Part shown: piece by piece, positions 22,530 through 44,278 of the stretch
How the letters are laid out: every line of letters begins with the position of its first letter
How positions within the stretch are numbered: the first letter of the stretch is position 1
Assembly (NCBI GenBank): GCA_963813335.1
Contig: CAWEYL010000001.1
Location: forward strand, 384,001-448,000
Source: an uncultured Chloroflexia bacterium
Lineage (GTDB): Bacteria > Chloroflexota > Limnocylindria > Limnocylindrales > CSP1-4
Direction of reading: 5' to 3'
DNA length: 64,000 nucleotides
Translations under genes and position numbers: made by a program
The notes under the pieces: model-generated
What the model saw: only the letters and a program-made list of their open reading frames with translations
Told to the model about the DNA's origin: nothing
The model's database searches: none

Positions 22530-22919
22530 TCGTCGCGCCACGACGTGGCGCGACAACGAGGCGATCAGACGGGGCGCCGGCACTGCCGGCGCCCCGTTCC
22601 CATGCCCGGGAATCCGGTGCCGCGGCGCCACGAACGGGACCCTGTCGGGACCATCGTCCTATGGCGATCCGACCCCCGCGGAGGACAGTTCAGGGAGTGC
22701 GGTCGGGTCGCGTTTCGAACGGTCGAGAGCGGTCCGAGCCACGACGCCCGGAGGACCACCCGGACGGAGACCGTGATCGCCGCGGCGCCCCGAACGCGCG
22801 ACCGACACGGTCTCCAGGGATCCGTGGGGACGGGCGGGACAAGGCGCTCGGCTCCCTCCGCCGACGCTCCATCCAGATCCTTGGGAGTGCCCCCTGATGG
22901 ATCCGTTCCAGCAACTTCG

Positions 22920-24212
22920 ATGACCAGGCGACGGACCCCACGCCGCCCGCAGCCGCGCGACCGCGGCGCCCTGCTGGCCTACACGGCCATCACGACCCTG
23001 GCCGGCTTCGCCTCGCTCGTCTGGGCGGCCGCCACCTTCCCGATCGACGAGGCGATCTCCCTCACCGCGGCCGGCGGCCGCGAGGGGATCCTGCTCGGCC
23101 TGATCTTCTGGATCGCGATCGGACTCCTCGGCGGGACGCGCGTCGAGCGCATGCACGGCCACGGCGTCCTCACCTTCCACCTCCCGTTCATCATCGCGGC
23201 CATGGCCGTCGGCGGCCCGACCGCCGGCGCGCTGGTGGCGCTCCTGTCCACGATCGAGCGGCGCGAGCTGCGCGAGGTGCCGTGGTACGGCACGGTGGCC
23301 AACCACGCCCACCTGACCCTGTCCGCGGTCGTCGGCGGTGTCGTCCTGCTGGGGATCGAGCGCTGGCTCGGGGTGCTCCTGCCCGACAAGCCGCAGGCGG
23401 TCGCGCTGATCGCCATCATCGGCGGGGGTGGGCTGATGACCCTGATCGCGATCAGCCTGGCTGCGGGGACCGTGCATCTCCGCGACGGTCTCACGCGCGG
23501 CGAGCTGCTGCGCCTCTACGACACGGCCTACCGGGCGACCGCCGCCACCGAGGTGGTCCTCGGCTGGATCCTCGCCTACACCTATACCGCGCTCGGCTGG
23601 TGGGCGGCGCTCGTCGCGGCGATCCTGGTCCTCGCCGTCTGGCAGAGCCATGACGCCACGACGATCTCGCACCACGACCCGATGACCGGCCTGTTGAACC
23701 GCTCCGGCTTCGACGTCCGGCTGGCCCACGCCATCGACGCCTCGCAGCGCCACGACCGCCTCGGCGCGCTCCTGGCCATCGACCTGGACGGCTTCAAGGC
23801 CATCAACGATCGCAACGGCCACCCGGTCGGCGACGAGGTGCTCCGCGTCGTCGGCGAGCGGCTGCAGGCCTCGATCCGCCTGACCGACGCGGCGGTCCGC
23901 CTCGGCGGCGACGAGTTCGGGGTCCTCCTGGTGGACCTGCCGAACGCCGGGACCGCCAAACGGCTCGCCAAGCGGATCCACGACACCATCGCGAGGCCCA
24001 TGGACGTCGACGGCCGGCCGCTCCAGGTCGGCGCCTCCATCGGCGTCTACCTGATCGAGCGCACGCGCAAGCCCCCCACGACGGGGCTGGTCCACGAGCT
24101 CGCCGACAAGCTGATGTACGAGGCGAAGGTCGCCGGTGGCGGCATCCGCTTCTCGGACCGGGCGGGCGACGCCATGATCGCCGCGAACGAGGAGCTCGCG
24201 ACACTCATCTGA
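22920..24212 (+). CDS. Membrane-bound diguanylate cyclase
   Basis: Multi-TM N-terminus; DPMTGLLNR, DLDGFKAIND, RLTD I-site, GGDEF. Confidence 0.9.
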   Translation: MTRRRTPRRPQPRDRGALLAYTAITTLAGFASLVWAAATFPIDEAISLTAAGGREGILLGLIFWIAIGLLGGTRVERMHGHGVLTFHLPFIIAAMAVGGPTAGALVALLSTIERRELREVPWYGTVANHAHLTLSAVVGGVVLLGIERWLGVLLPDKPQAVALIAIIGGGGLMTLIAISLAAGTVHLRDGLTRGELLRLYDTAYRATAATEVVLGWILAYTYTALGWWAALVAAILVLAVWQSHDATTISHHDPMTGLLNRSGFDVRLAHAIDASQRHDRLGALLAIDLDGFKAINDRNGHPVGDEVLRVVGERLQASIRLTDAAVRLGGDEFGVLLVDLPNAGTAKRLAKRIHDTIARPMDVDGRPLQVGASIGVYLIERTRKPPTTGLVHELADKLMYEAKVAGGGIRFSDRAGDAMIAANEELATLI

Positions 24213-27713: not shown

Positions 27714-28088
27714 GTGCGCAAGCGGAAGGTCACCTATCCGGTGGCCCGCACCAGCCGACGGCCTGCCCCCACCGATACCCCTGAAGTCACCTACGTCCGG
27801 CCGAGCGTCGTCGCCATCGACGTGAACGCCCAGAGCGGCCGCGAGGGCATCACCCTGGGCCGCCGCGTCCGGATCATCGGTGGCGGCCTGTACAGCGGCG
27901 AGATCGCCGTCGTCGAATCGATGCCGGGCGGGCTCATCCCCTCGGCGCTCGTCCGCACCGAGGCGGGGCGCACCCGACGCGTCCGCACCATCGACCTCGA
28001 GCCCGTCGGCGAGGGCGCGACCGATCGTCCGGCTGCGAGCACCCCGCCCCCGAAGCCCGAGCCCGAGGCGGACCGCGCCGACGCCTGA
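27714..28088 (+). CDS. KOW-motif-like hypothetical protein
   Basis: GRRVRIIGGGLYSGEIAVV. Confidence 0.6.
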   Translation: MRKRKVTYPVARTSRRPAPTDTPEVTYVRPSVVAIDVNAQSGREGITLGRRVRIIGGGLYSGEIAVVESMPGGLIPSALVRTEAGRTRRVRTIDLEPVGEGATDRPAASTPPPKPEPEADRADA

Positions 28089-28350
28089 CGGTCTGGATCT
28101 CCATCTCGAGCTCGCGTCCGACGCGGAGCTCGACGAGTTGCGCCGCGCGCTGCTCAAGGCGCGGGCCGCCGAGCTCTCGGAGGTCCGCCGCCGCGACGTC
28201 CGCCTGACCGCGGGCTACGGCGATGCCACGAACCGCGCGGTCATGGACGACGAGGCACGGCGGGCGCAGGTCCGCTACGACGCGCTCACGCGACTGCTCG
28301 ACGCGCTCGACCGCGCGGAGTCGACTGCCGGGCACGATCCGACCCGCTGA
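28081..28350 (+). CDS. Hypothetical helical protein (start uncertain, possibly ACG)
   Basis: Coding-like frame LELASDAELDELRRALL; no ATG/GTG/TTG at the expected start. Confidence 0.5.
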   Translation, partial: TPDGLDLHLELASDAELDELRRALLKARAAELSEVRRRDVRLTAGYGDATNRAVMDDEARRAQVRYDALTRLLDALDRAESTAGHDPTR

Positions 28351-28437
28351 GGCCCGCCATTCGCGGCCCGCAGGACGTTCCCGCGCCACAGGACGATGAT
28401 TTCGGTCGTGGGGGCAGTGACGATCGGAGGCCACAAC

Positions 28438-28884
28438 ATGCGCGTCGAGTTCACGCGTCAGCCGCACCCACGGGTCCAGGAGCGCAAGAAGAGCGGGCCG
28501 CCCACGAGAGCCGCCGAGCATGAAGGCGTCAACGGCCGGATCGCGCTGACGCTCACGAACGTCGTCGGCACGATGTGGTGTGCCTACGCCTTCGCGTGCC
28601 TGGCGCTGCTGGTCCTGCCGCAGGCGGTCGGCGGCGGGCTCCTCGCGCTCGTGCAGTGGATCAGCCAGACGTTCATCCAGCTCGTGATGCTCTCGGTGAT
28701 CATGGTCGGCCAGAACATCCTGGGCCGGGCCGCCGACAAGCAGGCGGAGATGACCTACAAGGACGCGGACGCGGCGCTCCACGAGGTCGGCCAGGTCCAG
28801 GACCACCTGCAGATGCAGGACGACGCCATCAATACGCTGCTGGCGAAGGTCGAGCAGCTGGAGGCGTCCCTCGCCAAGGCCTGA
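28438..28884 (+). CDS. DUF1003-like membrane protein
   Basis: GGAGG SD; VGTMWCAY, WISQTFIQLVMLSVIMVGQN, C-terminal coiled coil. Confidence 0.7.
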   Translation: MRVEFTRQPHPRVQERKKSGPPTRAAEHEGVNGRIALTLTNVVGTMWCAYAFACLALLVLPQAVGGGLLALVQWISQTFIQLVMLSVIMVGQNILGRAADKQAEMTYKDADAALHEVGQVQDHLQMQDDAINTLLAKVEQLEASLAKA

Positions 28885-28894
28885 CGCATGGCCG

Positions 28895-28943
28895 GGTCGA
28901 TGACCGCCTGGTCGAGATGGACTTCGGTCCGTACGAGGGCTAG
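28895..28943 (+). pseudogene. Short histidine-phosphatase-like fragment
   Basis: VDDRLVEMDFGPYEG* resembles the L.E.DFG.WEG motif. Confidence 0.35.
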
Positions 28944-28980
28944 TCCGAGGCGGCCCTCGAGGCGGACCCGGGGAGGCGAT

Positions 28981-30521
28981 TCACCTCGCGCCGTCCATCG
29001 CGCCGAAGTCGCGTTGGACGCCCAGCGGGCCGACCTCGATCACGTCTCTCTTCAGGTGCGCGATCCGGATACCGAGCTCGTTCCGCGCCTCGACGATCCG
29101 ATCCCCGGTAGTGGTCGCCGTCAGGATCCGGGCGCCACGACGCCGTGACCGTAGGTCGTCGCGTACTCGAGGACCCAGGCTTCACGGAAGGCCGCCATCC
29201 GTGCGGCCAGACCCGTCCCCGTCGGAGTGCCGAGCACGATGAATTCGTCACCGCCATCGCGGATCGCCATCGACTCCGGGATCCGTGCCAGCGCCTGGGC
29301 GAACGTCCGCAGCACCTCGTCGCCCTTCGCCATGCCGAAGGCGTTGTTGAACGTCCCGAACCCAGCGAGATCGATGAAGGCCACGTCGATCGGACGCTGC
29401 CGCGAGCCCGGGGACGGCCTCGAACAGGCGCTCCAGATCGGCGAAATAGCCGTAGAACGGAAGCCCCGTTCGTCGGTCGCGGTTGGTCACGGCGAGGTGC
29501 GGCCAGGCGAACCGGGCAGAGAACGGCAGTGACGACCGACGCAGCCACGCGAGCACCTCGACCGTCAGCCAGGTCGCCTCGGGACCGCATGCCCGCCACC
29601 AGCCGTCCGGTCGCTGACGGCTCGCGAAGCAAACGGCCGTCGGCGCAGGGTCGAATGCCGGATCGAGCCCCGCAAGCAGCTCGGCTGCCACGAACGTCGT
29701 CAGCTCGTCCGATCCACCGTCGCCATCGCCCCAGCCGCCGTCGTCGCGCTGCTGCGCCCGGACGAATGCGGTCAGGACGCCGGCGAGGTTGGGATGGACT
29801 CCGAGCGCGACCAGCCCGGTCGCGAGTTGGGCACTACCCGAGACGAGCGGCACGTCATGGAACGGGAAGCGTGTCCCGAGCACCCGCCGCCCGCCTTCCG
29901 GGCGGAGGTGGCGTACGACCCTGCGATCGCAGCCGCGAACGGGTACAGCAAGGTCAAGGCCCCCGGTCGGCGGGCCATCGCCCAGAGCGCCCAGGTGTCC
30001 GCCCACGCCCGGAGTTCCTGCACCCAGCCGGCGGCGTCGCGGCGAACCTTGGGGAGCGCCTCGTCGAGGAACGCCCGAGCCAGATCGCCGCTTGCACCCG
30101 ATCTGCGGGCGATATCACTCAGGAGGTCGAGGCTGTCCGTCAGGATGATCGGTGTGAGCAGGCGCTCGATGTCCTCGAGTGGGCGTGCCGCTCGCTCGGC
30201 CCATGCCGTGGCGTCGGCGGTGCGCCATGGTTGCCAGCTCTCGATCGGTCCGATCCACTCGGGGAACGAGCCGGTGAAGCGAGGCGTGATGCCGGGGAAG
30301 CGGGGATAGATGCCCCAGCGGTAGCGGATCGCGCCGGTCTCTCGGGTGACGCCCGGGGCCCAGCGCGACAGGAGATCGCCGGCATCGACATCGAGACCTA
30401 CGTCCCGGCGGCCACGCAGCACGGCAACCGGGAACAGCGGGTCATCATCGGTTCCGGTTCGGGCGATCGCGGCGGACCCGTCGGCGATCGCGCGTTCGAT
30501 CGAGCGTTCGGTCTCGATCAC
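28981..30521 (-). CDS. Prenyltransferase/squalene-cyclase repeat protein with C-terminal divergent GGDEF domain (about 3 frameshifts; start approximate)
   Basis: QQRDDGGWG, RQRPDGWW, DRRTGLP, FIDLAGFGTFNN..GDEVLR, RDGGDEF. Confidence 0.7.
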
Positions 30522-30682
30522 GCCTGGCTCGTCGCGGTCAAGCGGCGCATCCTGCCCCTCCGTCGCACTTCGCCCTGTCGGGCGAATGGTCGCGCGCAGG
30601 GTCCGGTCGGGCGATGACCCGAAAGTCCCGTAGGGGTCAGGCGTACGCTTCCCATGCTCGTCGCTCAAAGGACGGTGGTTGC

Positions 30683-31126
30683 GTGAAATCGAGGCGATGG
30701 GCCCTGGTCCTGCTCGCCACAGTGGTCTTGGTGGTCGGCGCTGCCGTCTGGCTGCTTCCGCCGCAACCACCGGCGCTGCCGGCGACGGCCACGGCACTGG
30801 ACTTGCGCACGCAGCCGTGGCGGCCGTGGCCGTTCGGTAGTTTCGGCTGTGGGCTTGCGGCGCTGACGCCGATCCGGGGCGAGCATGTCGGAAGCGCGAT
30901 GGTCTTCGCGGACGAGGCGAGCGGTACCGTCTTGCCGGTCGTGTGGCCCAGCGGCTATTCGGCACGACTGTTGGACGGGCGGGCCGAGCTGGTGCGGCCG
31001 GACGGGTCCGTCCTTGCCCGCGACGGGGACGTGATCAGCAACCTGGCGTCCGGTGCCGCAGATAACGGCGACCTCCTCGTCTGCCTGGATTCCGCATCGG
31101 CGCCCCTGGTCGAACCGTCACCGTGA
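30683..31126 (+). CDS. Hypothetical membrane-anchored exported protein
   Basis: N-terminal TM; VVWPSGYSAR..ELVRPDGSVLARDGD; two Cys. Confidence 0.6.
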   Translation: MKSRRWALVLLATVVLVVGAAVWLLPPQPPALPATATALDLRTQPWRPWPFGSFGCGLAALTPIRGEHVGSAMVFADEASGTVLPVVWPSGYSARLLDGRAELVRPDGSVLARDGDVISNLASGAADNGDLLVCLDSASAPLVEPSP

Positions 31127-31172
31127 TGAGCGCTTTCCGCCTGCCATCCGACTCGGATACCCCCACCGGGTA

Positions 31173-31249
31173 TTGACAAAGGGGTTGACAAATCCCGGCT
31201 CTTCGGGCATGATTCTCACCAACAGGGCTTGTCAAGACTTGACAGGCCC
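31173..31249 (+). promoter_or_regulatory. dnaG-rpoD promoter with repeated TTGACA and a downstream palindrome
   Basis: TTGACA(31185)-17 bp-CATGAT(31208); extra TTGACAAA at 31173; TGTCAAG-A-CTTGACA at 31230-31244. Confidence 0.65.
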
Positions 31250-31338
31250 ACAGTCATGTCCGGCGCCTGGCGGGGCGGTCGGACGGGTCGATCGGGCGTT
31301 GCGGGGCGGCCGGTCGGATGGGAACCAGGAGGCGCCAT

Positions 31339-33257
31339 TTGGCGGTCGGAGTCGCGGCGGAGGTCAAGAGCAAGCTGTCGGTCGTCGAGGTCGTCGGCGA
31401 GACGGTGACGCTCAAGAAGGCGGGCACCACCTACAAGGGCCTGTGCCCCTTCCACGGTGAGAAGACACCCTCGTTCGTCGTCACCCCGGCCCGCGAGAAC
31501 TGGCACTGCTTCGGCTGCGGCCTGAGCGGCGACATCTTCAGCTTCGTCATGCAGCGCGACGGCGCGACCTTCCCCGAGGCGCTCCGCACCCTCGCCCAGC
31601 GCGCCGGCGTCGAGATCGACGAGCGGACCAAGCGCGAGGACGCCCACAAGGCCCGGCTCCGCCAGGTCCTCGACCACGCGATCGCCTTCTACCACGCGGT
31701 CCTGACCTCGTCGAAGGCCGGCGCCGCCGCCCTCGACTACGTCCACGGCCGCGGCATCACCGACGCCTCGATCGAGGCCTTCCAGCTCGGCTGGGCGCCG
31801 GGCGGCTGGGACCAGATGACCCGCACGCTCCAGGCGAAGCGCGACGTCCGCCCCGAGGAGCTCGTCGAGGTGGGCCTCGCCGCGCCGCGTTCCAACGGTC
31901 GCCAGGGCGTCGTACGACAAGTTCCGCAGCCGGGTGATCTTCCCGATCCGCGACGCATCGGGCCACGCGGTCGGCCTCGGCGGCCGCCTCCTCGAAGGGG
32001 AGGGGCCGAAGTACCTCAACTCCGCGGCCACGCCGCTCTTCGACAAGAGCCGCACGCTCTACCTCATCGACAAGGCGAAGGGCCCGATCCGCCGCAGCGG
32101 CGGCCAGGCCGTGATCGTCGAGGGCTACACCGACGCGCTGATGGCCCACCAGGCCGGCTTCGACAACGTCGTGGCCAGCCTCGGGACCGCGCTGACGCCC
32201 GGCCAGGTCGCGCTGCTCACCCGCTACGCGGACCGGATCGTCCTCGCCTACGACGTCGACGCGGCCGGCGAGAAGGCGGGCACGCTCGGGGTCCAGGCGC
32301 TCGCCGGGCTGGTCGGCCAGCTCCAGTCGGACTCGTCCGGCGTCAAGCTCGAGGACGTCCGGGTCGCGCGGCTCCCCGACGGCAAGGATCCCGACGAGGT
32401 CGTGCGCGAGTCGCCCGAGGCGTGGACCGCGGCGATCGCGGCCGCCAAGCCGCTCGTCGAATACCTGATCGGCCACCACGCGGCGCGCTTCGACCTCAAG
32501 CAGTCGTCCGGGCGCGATCGGCTTCGTCGAGGCGGTCATGCCGTCCATCCGCGACATCGCCGACCCGCTCCGCCGCGACGAGGCGCTCCAGGAGGTCCGC
32601 CGCGTGTCGGGCGTGGAGGAGAAGGTCCTGCACCAGGTCCTCGAGCGCCGGCTGGCGGCCGCGGGCCCGGGCCGCGCCGGCGACCAGCAGGGCCGCATCA
32701 CCGCGGACTCGGTCCTGGCCTCGCCGGACGCCCTGCCGATCAACGACATCCTCCGCGCGGTGACGCCAGTCGAGGCCGAGCTCCTGCGCCTGCTGCTCCT
32801 CATCCCGGACCTCCAGCTCAAGGTCGTCGACGAGCTCGGTCCGGACCAGCTGCCTTCGACGGTCGCGCGCGAGCTCTTCCGGGCGATCGTGCTCCAGCGC
32901 GAGTCCAACGACCAGGGCGTCCACCCGCCGTTCGACGCCGCCGTGCTCCTGGCCGGCCTCGACGATGAAACGGCCGCCCTCGCCCGGGCGTTGTATGCGA
33001 AGCCGGGGCCGGACCCGCGGACGCTCGGCGGGAGCCAGCTCGACTACGAGGTCGGCCGCCTCCTCCTCGATCTCGAGGACGAGCGGCTGCGCGAGCGCAG
33101 CGACTACAACGAGGCCGCCCAGGGGGAGGCCGACCGGGCCGGCGACGCCGAGGCGATCGCCCGCCTGATGCTCGAACGAAAGCAGATCAACGAAGCGCGC
33201 CGGTCGCTCGACCGACGTCGAGACCAGACCCGGCTGCTCGTCAGCCACCGGAGGTAA
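31339..33257 (+). CDS. dnaG: DNA primase (2 frameshifts)
   Basis: AGGAGG SD with TTG start; [46 protein letters not shown]. Confidence 0.95.
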
Positions 33258-39718: not shown

Positions 39719-42297
39719 CCGCTCGGGCGGCCACCGGTGCGGTGAACCCGCCGCTCCCAGTTCCGGCCGCATCCGCGATCGGTGGCCACGACCAGGCCCA
39801 CGCGGGCCGCGGGGACTTCACGTCGCTCAGCGACCGGATGTCGCACCTGCTCATCCTGCGGGTGGCGATCGGCGTGATCGTCTCCCTCTGGGCCGTGCTG
39901 GCACCCGAGGCGCTGGTCGAGCCGCTCGGGACGATCGGGGCCTGGACCGCCGCCTATCTCGCGTTCGCGGTCATCGGGGAGTGGGCCCGGCAGCGGACCA
40001 CCCGGTTCAATTACTGGATCCTCACCGGCCTGCTCCTGATGGACGGCGTCTACCTTGCCGCCGCGATGTACGCGACGGGCGGGACGCAGAGTCCGATCCG
40101 GTTCGTCGTCTACCTCCACCTCGTGGCGGTCTCGCTGCTGGCCTCGTACCGGACCGGCCTCAAGATCGCCCTATGGCACTCGCTGCTGCTGTTCGTCCTC
40201 CTCTATGCGCAGGCCGCCCGTCTCGTTACCGCGATCGAGGTCACTCCCGGGGTCGGCATCGAATTCGACCAGATGCCGGTCCTCAACGTCACGTCCTTCT
40301 GGCTGTTCGCGATCGCGACCTCGATCTTCTCCGCGCTCAACGAGCGCGAACTGCGACAGCGCCGCGCCGACCTGCAGGCGCTCGTCGACGTCGGCGCCAA
40401 GCTCGACACCGTCGCGGACGCGATCCGGCAGGCCGAGCTCGTGCTCGAGGCCCTCGTCGGACGCTTCGGCTTCGAGCGCGGCGTGCTGCTCGGCGAGTCG
40501 GATCGGCGGGTCGTCGTCCTCGCGACGCACGGCACGGCCGAGGCGCCGACGACCTCGAACGACCCCGACTGGATCGTGAGCCGCGCCTGGGAGCGCCGCG
40601 AGACCCTGCCCGTCAAACACCTCGACCCGACGCGCGACCCGCTGCTCGCGAAGCTCATGCCCGACGCGCGGAACGTCCTGGTCGCTCCGATGATCGCGGA
40701 CGGCCGGACGATCGGGGCCATCGTCGTCGAGCATCGCGCCCGGCGCCGGCCCGGCGTCGAGCGGCGCGTCGCGGCGATGCTCGGCCAGTTCGCGGCGATC
40801 GCCGCGCTGAACCTGCGCAACGCCGTGCTCCTCCAGCACGTGCAGGACCTCGCCGAGCGCGACTCCCTGACCGGCGCCGCCAACCGCCGCATGTTCCAGC
40901 TGGCGCTCGAGCGCGTCCTCGGTGCCAAGAAGGACGCCCATCCAGAGGACAAGGTCACCGCGGTCCTCTTCCTCGACCTCGACGACTTCAAGGTCGTGAA
41001 CGATACGCTCGGCCACGGGGCCGGCGACGCGCTCCTCGTGGCGGTCACCGAGCGCATCGAGGGGCTCGTCCGCGAGGGTGACCTGGTCGCCCGCCTCGGC
41101 GGCGACGAATTCGCGGTCCTCATCGAGGACGAGCCGTCGCTCAGCCGGGCCCGCTCGATGGCGGCACGCCTGGTCTACGAGCTCCGCGCGCCGTACATCC
41201 TCGGCGACAAGCACGTGGTGGTGTCCGCGTCGGTGGGCATCGCCAGTGCCCGCGATGCGATCGCGGGCGCGGCGGACCTCGTCCGCAATGCCGACGTCGC
41301 GATGTACATGGCCAAGGCCAACGGCAAGTCCGGCTTCTCGGTCTTCGACCCCGGCATGCACGAGGCCATGCGCGAGCGCCACGAGCTCAGCGTCGACCTC
41401 CAGCGCGCGGCGGACCTCGACCAGCTGGCCCTGATGTTCCAGCCGATCGTGAACCTCAAGACGGGCGGCTTGGCCGGTGTCGAGGCGCTCGTGCGCTGGC
41501 ACCACCCGGTGCATGGCCTGATCATGCCGGACCGCTTCATCGAGATCGCCGAGGAGACCGGGACGATCCTCCCGATCGGCCATTGGGTGCTCCGCCACGC
41601 GTGTCTCGAGGCCGCGGACTGGCTGGCCGAGGGGCAGGTCCCGCCCGAGACGTTCGTCAGCGTCAACGTGTCGGCCCGCGAGATCCAGCAGCTCGGCTTC
41701 GTCGACGGCGTCAAGGCCGTGCTCGGCGAGTCCGGCCTCGATCCGAAGCGCCTGGTCCTCGAGATCACCGAGACCGCGCTGCTGCGCGCCACGCCGACGA
41801 CGGTCGCCACACTCGAGGCGGTCCGGGCGATGGGCGTGCGCACCGTCATCGACGACTTCGGGACCGGCTACTTCTCGCTCAGCCACCTGCGCCAGTTCCC
41901 GGTCGATGCGCTCAAGATCGCCAAGGAGTTCGTGCAGGACGTCGACGAGGCGTCCAAGTCGTCTGCGCTGGCCGGCGCGATCATCGCGATGAGCCGCTCG
42001 CTCGGCATCGAGACTGTCGCGGAGGGGATCGAGACGTCCGAGCAGGCGGACCGGATGCAGCGCCTCGGCTGCGCCTTCGGCCAGGGCTACGCGTTCGCGC
42101 GCCCGATGGATGTCGCCGACCTGCTGGCGAGCTTCGGGGTCATGCCCGCCGAGATCGCCGCATCCGCCCCGGCGGCCAGGGCCGCCACGAAGCGGACGAA
42201 GGCGACTGTCGAGGCGGCGGTCGACGCCACCACGCGACGCGTCGCGGCCAAGGTCGTGCCGCCGACCCGGCCGACGCGCCGACCGGCCGGCGCCTGA
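39715..42297 (+). CDS. Membrane GAF-GGDEF-EAL c-di-GMP protein
   Basis: TM helices, GAF ([16 protein letters not shown]), [27 protein letters not shown]. Confidence 0.93.
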
Positions 42298-43008: not shown

Positions 43009-43679
43009 CGCTGCGCCACCGTGCCCGACGCGTCCGCTGCGCTCGTCGGCACGCCCCTCGCGTCCGCCGGCGCGTCGAGGTGGCAGTCCTCGTTCCAGGT
43101 CTCGATGACCGGACGGTCGCGGTCCCAGCCGAGGATCGACACGGTCGCGGTCGAGAGGGCGAAGAGCCCGCCCGAGGCGCCGGGCATCCCGAGCCACCGC
43201 GCGCCGAGGACGCGCAGCAGGTGGCCGTGGCTGAAGAGCAGGGTGTCGCCCCCGATGCCGGACGCCAGGCAGCGGGCGATGACCCGGTCCGCGCGGGCGG
43301 TGACGTCGTCGATGGTCTCGCCACCGGGCCAAGGGCCGGACCAGATGGACCAGTCCGGGAACTCGGCACGGATGTCGGCGGTCAGGCGGCCCTCGAGCGC
43401 GCCATAGTCCCACTCCATGAGGTCCGGGTCGGGCTCGGCGAGCTCGCCGAACCCGGCGAGCCGCGCGGTGTCGGCCGCGCGGGAGAGGGGACTCGTCAGG
43501 ACGAGGGCGAACGCGTGGCCCTCGAGCCGCCGGCCGAGGGCCCCGGCCTGCGTTCGCCCGACCCCGGTCAACGGGATGTCGGTCCGACCGGTATGGCGGC
43601 CGAGGCGCGCCCACTCGGTCTCGCCATGGCGGACCAGCCAGACCTGGCGCTCGGGTGCGCCCTGCGGCACGTCCGTCAT
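43005..43679 (-). CDS. Histidine phosphatase family protein
   Basis: LVRHGETEW, SPLSRA, LMEWDYGALEG, FSHGH. Confidence 0.9.
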   Translation of the reverse strand: MTDVPQGAPERQVWLVRHGETEWARLGRHTGRTDIPLTGVGRTQAGALGRRLEGHAFALVLTSPLSRAADTARLAGFGELAEPDPDLMEWDYGALEGRLTADIRAEFPDWSIWSGPWPGGETIDDVTARADRVIARCLASGIGGDTLLFSHGHLLRVLGARWLGMPGASGGLFALSTATVSILGWDRDRPVIETWNEDCHLDAPADARGVPTSAADASGTVAQR

Positions 43680-44278
43680 CCGGCGGACCCGGCGTCCGAT
43701 CCATCGCCCGTGTCCAGCGCCACGTCCGGGCGGGTCGCGGCGGCCGGATCCGGCGTGAAGAAGTCCCGGGGCCGCCAGCCGAGCAGCCCGGCCAGCATGT
43801 TCGTCGGGACCTGCGAGATCCTCGTGTTGTAGCGATAGACCTGGTCGTTGTAGAGCTCGCGGCGGTCCGCGATGATCCCCTCGAGGCGCTCGATCTCGGA
43901 CTGCAGGTCGGCCACGTTGGCCGCCGACTTGATGTCGGGGTAGCGCTCGACCGTCGCGAACAGGGTTCGGATCGCCGCGCTCGTCTGGGCGGAGACCCCG
44001 GCCTGCGCGGGGATCGGGGCGCTCGGCGCGTAGGCGGCACGGGCACGGGTGACCTCGGTGAGGACGTCGCGCTCGTAGGTCATCAGGCCCCGGACGGCCT
44101 CCACCAGACTGGGCAGCTGATCGTGGCGCTGCTGCAGCGCCACGCCGATGTTCGCCCACGCCTTGTCGATCCGCTGTCGGAGTGCCATGACAGCGTTGTA
44201 GCTTGCTACCACGATGTACGCCACGACGAGCACCACGACCCCGATCGCGAAGACGGCCGCGTAGGACGCTGCGTTCAC
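43676..44278 (-). CDS. lemA: LemA family protein
   Basis: TM; AWANIGVALQQRHD; ERYPDIKS; RRELYN. Confidence 0.88.
   Translation of the reverse strand: MNAASYAAVFAIGVVVLVVAYIVVASYNAVMALRQRIDKAWANIGVALQQRHDQLPSLVEAVRGLMTYERDVLTEVTRARAAYAPSAPIPAQAGVSAQTSAAIRTLFATVERYPDIKSAANVADLQSEIERLEGIIADRRELYNDQVYRYNTRISQVPTNMLAGLLGWRPRDFFTPDPAAATRPDVALDTGDGSDAGSAG

Follow-up and report, generated by a model that had tools for sequence, protein, structure and literature searches.

The DNA analysed here (the window, meaning the whole stretch of 64,000 nucleotides, to which all coordinates refer, and not the gene under study) comes from an uncultured Chloroflexia bacterium and has a G+C content of about 70–75%. 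Its minus strand carries a gene for a protein that combines an N-terminal (alpha/alpha)6 toroid, a fold shared with terpene cyclases, with a divergent C-terminal GGDEF domain (Table 1). In three-frame translation the gene appears as four consecutive open pieces separated by single frame changes. Three single-base corrections turn them into one open reading frame (ORF) of 513 aa that runs from a GTG to the stop without an inner stop, in line with an earlier note on this DNA, which had joined the four pieces to a protein of about 510 aa. The strings quoted in that note were all found on the minus strand at the positions given for them, with coordinates re-checked. The corrected protein agrees with its intact homologue P0001 in 461 of 513 aligned columns (90%).

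Table 1 Features of the toroid–GGDEF gene, its frame breaks and the adjacent phosphatase relic (window coordinates)
Feature	Position	Strand	Description or basis
Whole gene	28981..30521	minus	GTG start 30521, stop 28983-28981; 513 aa after three single-base corrections
Frame pieces 1-4	30521-c.29885, c.29884-c.29393, c.29392-c.29130, c.29129-28984	minus	
Start peptide VIETERS	GTG at 30521	minus	Three-frame translation
Toroid domain, (alpha/alpha)6, about 330-345 aa, all-helical	29482..30521	minus	AlphaFold2 models, VIA-align, PDB profile match
QW motif 1, QRDDGGW	29751-29731	minus	Translation; hhalign internal repeat; aligned with repeats of the squalene-hopene cyclase (SHC) type
QW motif 2, QRPDGWW	29616-29596	minus	Translation; hhalign internal repeat; aligned with SHC-type repeats
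GGDEF domain, wide-turn motif RDRRTGL to C-terminus	28984..29481	minus	Pfam, PDB profile match, fold match
Wide-turn motif RDRRTGL	29481-29461	minus	
Nucleotide-binding segment FIDLAGFGTFNNAFGMAKGD	29378-29319	minus	Metal Asp, Gly at the PleD-K332 position, guanine-binding Asn and Asp
RDGGDEF signature hairpin	29261-29241	minus	
Frameshift 1	29884..29885		Extra A behind 29884 in two short-read contigs (identity to the window about 99%)
Frameshift 2	29392..29393		Window GG, one G fewer in one short-read contig; rests on a 9-letter loose end; weakest of the three
Frameshift 3	29129..29130		Extra G behind 29129 in one short-read contig, about 94% identical; restores GVVAPRILT as in homologues
His_Phos_1 relic, 75 nt	28896..28970	plus	Reads VDDRLVEMDFGPYEG*SEAALEADP

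With piece 1 as the query, a word-indexed search among longer proteins gave 32 matches of 406–791 aa, 31 of them carrying the Pfam GGDEF domain PF00990; the best full-length homologue, P0001 with 532 aa, shares 86% identity with the complete piece. When piece 2 was used in an exhaustive HMMER search, 116 clusters, each represented at the 50% identity level, were returned at E ≤ 0.001, and 59 clusters at E ≤ 1e-30; most are about 500 aa in length. The weakest of these matches that were scanned are multi-repeat prenyltransferase or squalene-cyclase-repeat proteins, one of which has cyclases and prenyltransferases of solved structure among its matches. Relatives are encoded in 126 stretches of the genome collection, and the 79 loci kept comprise 59 from Chloroflexota (many Limnocylindria-type), 17 from Myxococcota or 'delta' proteobacteria and three from other phyla. 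The family is mainly one of soil Chloroflexota and Myxococcota, and its distribution is patchy. Piece 2 found no match in any of 24 genomes of the same genus, and piece 1 matched six of 401 genomes in a sample of the phylum (the window's own counted), which fall into two families of one class. In the family tree the motif filter left one Myxococcota row, and no conclusion on transfer between phyla is drawn.

The family has a uniform architecture. Ten members that were scanned, most of them longer than the usual ~500 aa, showed no additional domain; the exceptions in the family are a C-terminal histidine phosphatase domain (His_Phos_1) in P0054 and P0109 and an extra N-terminal GGDEF domain in P0010 and P0093. 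Five short matches (P0043, P0120, P0121, P0125 and P0127) proved to have this architecture too, in truncated or frameshifted copies, and not to be stand-alone toroids, although no search was aimed at shorter proteins. Models of defence systems gave no PADLOC match for four members. A literature search found no paper on the combination of a toroid with a GGDEF domain, which agrees with the earlier statement that no characterised protein of this architecture was known, and the pairing of a terpene-cyclase-like (alpha/alpha)6 toroid with a divergent GGDEF domain seems to be undescribed.

The structure of the protein was predicted with AlphaFold2, for the full length from an alignment of 69 sequences with the intact homologue P0003 as the first row, and for the N-terminal domain alone from 35 sequences. 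The full-length model reached a mean predicted local confidence (pLDDT) of 96.2 and a predicted template-modelling score (pTM) of 0.94, the N-domain model a pLDDT of 93.5. Residues 5–328 of the model are all-helical and form an (alpha/alpha)6 toroid, and all 50 VIA-align matches listed for it are (alpha/alpha)6 barrels. The top match is 8paj, a myxobacterial 'squalene-hopene cyclase' of 342 residues (Z 15.8, 265 residues aligned), followed by the TEP1r thioester domain (15.0), a glucose-2-epimerase (14.9), drimenyl diphosphate synthase (14.7), the terpene cyclase MstE (6sbb; 14.5, 255 residues aligned) and SHC (14.3). These top scores are tied within about one Z unit and lie near the level that the tool flags for helical repeats. 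Since the tie spans cyclases, thioester domains and sugar epimerases, the fold alone identifies a toroid and not a terpene cyclase. The same barrel occurs in the thioester domains of TEP1, complement and alpha-2-macroglobulin (2pn5, Z 15.0; 1hzf, Z 14.0) and in AGE-family sugar epimerases and isomerases (8h1k, Z 14.9; 7ag4, Z 14.4).

In contrast to thioester domains and the AGE family, which have no sequence-level match to the family, terpene-cyclase repeats match it at the profile level. Compared with PDB profiles, the family profile found 8pak at E 1.3e-6 as a whole and at 1.1e-4 with the N-domain profile; 7xkx followed at 2e-4 and 6.7e-4 and SHC at 0.03–0.06, always over the two QW repeats. 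Foldseek, run with the N-domain alone, listed class II cyclases as its best rows, all of them weaker than 1e-3, so that no match at E ≤ 1e-3 was obtained. Two internal repeats are detectable by hhalign, which gave no repeat signal in the N-terminal 215 residues. The Pfam scans of family members returned no model for the N-domain: SQHop_cyclase_N on piece 2 remained sub-threshold (13.8 bits, cut-off 26.2), and SQHop_cyclase_N or C matched three of the 69 members weakly (best E 0.0097). Single-domain, beta-only class II terpene cyclases such as the myxobacterial 8paj/8pak and MstE have the same toroid of about 340 residues, and according to a passage in PMC12324236 MstE homologues occur in Myxococcota and Chloroflexi. 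Unlike these cyclases, the family combines a GGDEF fusion with only two recognisable repeats and no DxDD or DxD acid motif. By its profile matches the toroid probably descends from the terpene-cyclase/prenyltransferase repeat superfamily, whose catalytic motifs it either lost or never possessed. The earlier note had placed such a toroid in the middle of the protein, behind a Trp-rich N-terminal region; the alpha-alpha toroid with its two QW motifs, its best matches among class II terpene cyclases and the Trp content (2.2–3.8% in five homologues) all held, and the boundary did not, as the fold takes up the whole N-terminal 330 residues.

The features that define class II cyclases, prenyltransferase beta subunits and thioester domains as catalysts were not found in this toroid. 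Thioester domains carry a motif with a CGEQ-type Cys, and the beta subunit of protein prenyltransferases binds Zn with Asp, Cys and His. In the alignments of 69 and 35 sequences no Cys or His of the toroid reaches 60% conservation, and no pair of acidic residues at positions i and i+2 is conserved; a D.DD string is present in six of the 69 members. Prenyltrans (PF00432) matched five of the 69 (best E 0.0073), below the Pfam cut-off. The acid motif of class II cyclases is DxDD, and DxD in MstE, as given in a part of PMC12324236, and MstE D109 mutants are present, by title, among the structure matches. In the HMMER alignment to 8pak the stretch D-A-D-S-T-A, which by this family rule would be the acid motif of that protein, stands opposite D-x-L-T-T of the family: D265, retained in 66 of 69 members, is followed by a variable position and then by L267, which stands opposite the second Asp and is kept in 63. 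A toroid without DxDD or DxD, Zn site or thioester Cys is probably a binding or input domain, of which only the fold is that of a 'terpene cyclase'. The residues that the family does conserve there (W69, R93, D168, D259, D265, D280, E308, W311 and R330) would face either a pocket or the contact between the two domains; the linker PF..RF.WP is conserved as well.

The second domain is a GGDEF domain by its Pfam match, its PDB profile match and its fold. PF00990 matched piece 3 at E 2.4e-11 (44.1 bits, cut-off 23.8) and 67 of the 69 family members at E ≤ 0.1; the PDB profile match was the GGDEF domain of Thermotoga maritima (4urq, E 3.5e-14), which shares a DLAGF stretch with the family and is its best match at the level of sequence profiles. 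Residues 339–501 of the model form a complete GGDEF fold, aligned by VIA-align to SadC (4wxo) with Z 17.4 over 157 residues at a root-mean-square deviation of 2.5 and to PleD (1w25) with Z 16.5. Foldseek gave 67 matches at E ≤ 1e-3, of which all matches listed are GGDEF proteins, with PleD at E 2e-7. Across sensor diguanylate cyclases (PleD 1w25/2v0n, WspR, SadC 4wxo, T. maritima 4urq/4urs), Z scores range from 16.5 to 17.4 with 154–163 residues aligned. The C-terminal end, described earlier as lacking the usual sequence motif, is indeed unrecognisable by sequence, with AR..LG..I..LK in place of the helix AD.ALY.AK..GRN of sensor cyclases; in the model it is structurally ordinary and completes the fold.

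Active-site residues were assigned by alignment with five canonical GGDEF domains that the source genome also encodes, and were counted over the 69 members. The metal-binding Asp (D377; PleD D327) is kept in 68, the guanine-binding Asn (N385; PleD N335) in all 69 and the guanine-binding Asp (D394; PleD D344) in 67. R414 before the motif is kept in 66 members, and G416, G417, D418 and E419 in 67 each. Sixteen of the 18 Myxococcota and other-phyla ORFs listed have the same signature; of the other two, L042 lacks RDGGDEF and L045 has Gly at its first position. With the sensor diguanylate cyclases the family shares the metal Asp, the guanine Asn and Asp, RxGGDEF, the general-base Glu and the wide turn D-x-x-T-G-L. 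The RxxD I-site is absent from its canonical position, and an RxxD occurs in three of 66 members. The alignment and these counts bear out the earlier assignment, namely that metal Asp, guanine Asn and Asp and GGDEF are kept, the Lys of FK is replaced by Gly and the I-site is missing. The fold also resembles that of the Hypr GGDEF protein GacA (6d9m, Z 17.0). However, the family does not have the Ser that marks Hypr domains at the site of the guanine Asp: D394 is kept, and the altered positions are the equivalents of K332 and D336. Non-canonical GGDEF domains of classes II and III, as defined in a section of PMC13725321, resemble the family in having altered signature residues around a kept GGDEF motif.

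Taken together, sequence and model lead us to propose, at about an even chance of being right, that the protein is a cytoplasmic, ligand-regulated diguanylate cyclase without feedback inhibition that is controlled by a new, non-catalytic, terpene-cyclase-like toroid. The N-terminal ~330 residues would act as an input domain that binds a ligand or a partner, and through them the toroid would control the C-terminal 165 residues, which would bind GTP and, as a dimer, synthesise cyclic di-GMP (c-di-GMP). GTP binding and c-di-GMP synthesis are suggested by the retention of the Mg-binding Asp, the guanine Asn and Asp, the RxGGDEF hairpin and the general-base Glu; the fourth residue of the GGDEF motif acts as a general base across the dimer, and monomers are inactive, according to an excerpt of PMC6456294. 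As no RxxD I-site is present, the product would exert no feedback on the cyclase. The most hydrophobic windows of 19 residues score 1.5–1.7 and in P0003 lie over a toroid helix, so that the protein looks cytoplasmic and soluble. The source genome has 18 GGDEF and four EAL matches, and thus a c-di-GMP network exists that the protein could feed. Two canonical c-di-GMP genes lie in the window itself, one for a GGDEF protein of 555 aa (22545-24209, plus strand; E 4.9e-40) and one for a GGDEF-EAL protein (40855-42105, plus strand) within an open frame of 988 aa.

Several features of both domains weigh against an active diguanylate cyclase under the control of a ligand. A passage in PMC6629876 counts K332 among the active residues of PleD; at its position the window has Gly, and the 69 members have Gly in 46 cases, Arg in 18, Lys in three and other residues in two, the sensor cyclases' FK thus being FG in most of the family and FR or FK in 21. 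Arg at this position is found in nine of the 15 Myxococcota or 'delta' ORFs listed. No compensating basic residue at position 387 or 392 is present in 29 of the 46 Gly-type members. Two further motifs depart from those of sensor cyclases, ND being NN and GH being GM or GQ. Candidates for the counterparts of PleD K442 and R446, which bind phosphate from the C-terminal helix, are R473 (67 of 69) and K484 (66 of 69), in a C-terminal half for which the sequence alignment is unreliable. When members were scanned singly, Pfam covered only the first 90–128 of the 161 profile positions, and all four proteins scored with NCBIfam TIGR00254 stayed below its cut-off of 37.4 bits (P0003 31.6, P0001 35.7, P0051 35.7 and P0054 15.9). 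Many diguanylate cyclases are dimerised by a helical stalk. The secondary-structure string of the model contains no long stalk of this kind, which likewise sets it apart from the sensor diguanylate cyclases, and toroid and GGDEF domain are predicted as one rigid body. Lastly, no operon points to a ligand: a family-wide conserved partner was not found across the 79 loci, whose flanking ORFs were compared all against all and scanned with Pfam (50 of 116 candidate flanking ORFs scanned, near-identical loci omitted). Because the Lys equivalent to PleD K332 is Gly in the lineage of the window, cyclase activity may be low or altered; by the terms of the same section of PMC13725321 the signature residues are non-canonical and activity is not predictable with certainty.

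Many of these features would also fit a GGDEF domain that binds GTP, or c-di-GMP, without cyclising it and, similar to degenerate GGDEF domains, controls whatever the toroid does as a scaffold or nucleotide-sensing module. The exchange of Lys for Gly without nearby compensation, the divergent C-terminal half with its score under the TIGR00254 cut-off, and the rigid packing of two domains without a dimerising stalk all agree with such a role, for which GGDEF domains that bind only GTP or c-di-GMP offer a precedent (PMC13725321, in part). However, 67 of 69 members from two phyla keep the complete catalytic signature with both Gly and the general-base Glu, which is unusual for a pure binding domain, 21 of 69 have Arg or Lys where PleD has K332, and an I-site for c-di-GMP is lacking in all but three of 66 members. 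We consider a binding-only domain unlikely, though the most probable of the rivals.

A third explanation draws on the gene neighbourhood. The gene stands alone between plus-strand genes, with an unknown ORF of 162 aa on one side and an ORF of 170 aa followed by dnaG and rpoD on the other. No Rfam family or riboswitch was found in window positions 28000-31500. Locus L035 alone is syntenic with the window, and dnaG/rpoD occur also in L032. In one Chloroflexota clade the neighbours are F420 genes, a luciferase-like monooxygenase and a thioredoxin-reductase-like gene, and in Polyangia they are genes for the alpha subunit of electron transfer flavoprotein (ETF-alpha) and for DNA polymerase III tau. 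In the Polyangia-type loci L048, L049, L074, L041 and L087 the family gene follows the ETF-alpha gene, and in the first three of these it precedes the gene for DNA polymerase III gamma/tau. The search for a conserved operon partner turned up only such lineage-specific housekeeping neighbours.

The recurrent association is that with a branch-1 histidine phosphatase (His_Phos_1), seen in four of the 79 loci and in two fused clusters. In L012, L019 and L068 the phosphatase gene comes next in the same direction; L014 has a fragment of it, and P0054 and P0109 carry it as a C-terminal fusion. The window retains a relic of it in which 24 of 25 residues are identical to the L012 phosphatase that follows the family gene, with a TAG in place of a Trp codon. 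Compared with L012 the relic has the opposite orientation, and it takes up most of the 97 nt that separate the 162-aa ORF from the stop of the GGDEF gene. At a distance of 14 kb from this gene lies a histidine-phosphatase gene that seems intact (43176-43700, minus strand); it has an RHGET motif and about 35% identity to the family-linked phosphatases.

This association is the main support for the explanation in which toroid and GGDEF domain form a joint enzyme that makes a non-canonical guanine nucleotide, for example a linear or otherwise modified one, or transfers GMP to a molecule held in the cavity of the toroid (possibly isoprenoid or phosphorylated), and in which the histidine phosphatase processes the product. 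The three would then be a small unit of biosynthesis or signalling. The rigid packing of the domains (pTM 0.94), the altered K332 position and the conservation of the linker PF..RF.WP together with W69, R93, D168, E308, W311 and R330 of the toroid would fit such an enzyme. Against it, ordinary diguanylate cyclases have the same guanine-specific residues and the same general base acting across the dimer, the phosphatase link is confined to the few loci and fusions named, and no acceptor-activating residues were identified. We regard a non-canonical product as improbable; if true, the GGDEF fold would gain a new chemistry and the terpene-cyclase-like barrel a new use.

The frame breaks of the gene were examined in short contigs from four soil-metagenome runs of one study aligned to the stretch. 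Contigs that restore the frame were found at each of the three breaks (Table 1). Homologues with a single ORF continue uninterrupted across the frame-change sites of the window. In other loci from long-read metagenome-assembled genomes, L035 (5990-7430) and L015 (5968-7472), the family gene is itself divided into 3–5 frame pieces, and the break sites differ from those of the window, while in locus L012 it occupies one frame. The adjacent dnaG is likewise split between frames (31318-33250, plus strand), the zinc ribbon and the start of DNAG_N lying in the frame of 31318 and the rest of DNAG_N with Toprim in that of 31934; its parts share one frame in the syntenic locus L035, and the split is probably another indel of the assembly. 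Two further GGDEF genes of the source genome (G000; C1:507981-508458 and C6:59805-60273) are each matched by Pfam twice, in neighbouring positions, which suggests a frameshift in each. From the single-ORF homologues, the restoring bases in short-read contigs, the split dnaG and GGDEF genes and the different break sites in L035 and L015, we infer that the sequence is that of one intact gene, as the earlier note had it, and not of separate genes, and that its three frame breaks are indel errors. Gene calls in this assembly need to be read through such breaks. The protein from the window is also longer by seven residues at one place (30270-30332, minus strand), where it has YPRFPGITPRFTG and homologues have YPRFAG; the extra residues look like a short tandem duplication, and short-read contigs cover them without a gap, so the duplication seems real.

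A true pseudogene, in which all three frameshifts are real, is kept as a minor rival on account of the restoring contigs, which stem from related populations and not demonstrably from the same genome, one being only about 94% identical, and of the middle break (29392), where the support is a 9-letter overhang. Three breaks within 1.5 kb and a neighbouring phosphatase gene decayed to a 75-nt relic would suit it. Against this, the restoring base at 29884 is present in contigs of about 99% identity, the essential dnaG is split in the same window and other GGDEF genes elsewhere in the assembly, other long-read loci are broken at different sites, and the gene has no stops besides the indels and retains 90% identity to P0001, which makes a pseudogene very unlikely.

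Finally, an active class II terpene cyclase or prenyltransferase in the toroid, which would render the protein bifunctional, can practically be dismissed: although its best neighbours in structure and profile are class II terpene cyclases (8paj, 8pak, 8zg0 and 6sbb) and two QW motifs are present, it lacks a conserved DxDD or DxD, Cys or His, has Leu in 63 of 69 members opposite the second Asp of the 8pak stretch, and stays under the cut-offs of the Pfam cyclase and prenyltransferase models.

In its proposed role as a ligand-regulated diguanylate cyclase the protein would stand out by its input domain, as we found no described cyclase with an (alpha/alpha)6 toroid. The family is sizeable, and most of its members belong to soil Chloroflexota and Myxococcota that have been little studied. 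The earlier note had suggested a nucleotide cyclase that senses a lipid or isoprenoid, or an enzyme with a non-canonical nucleotide product; both stay hypothetical, and the source genome, which is 81% complete, gave no gene with SQHop_cyclase_C. Should the ligand of the toroid be an isoprenoid, or some other metabolite that is hydrophobic or phosphorylated, c-di-GMP signalling would be linked through this family to membrane or secondary metabolism.

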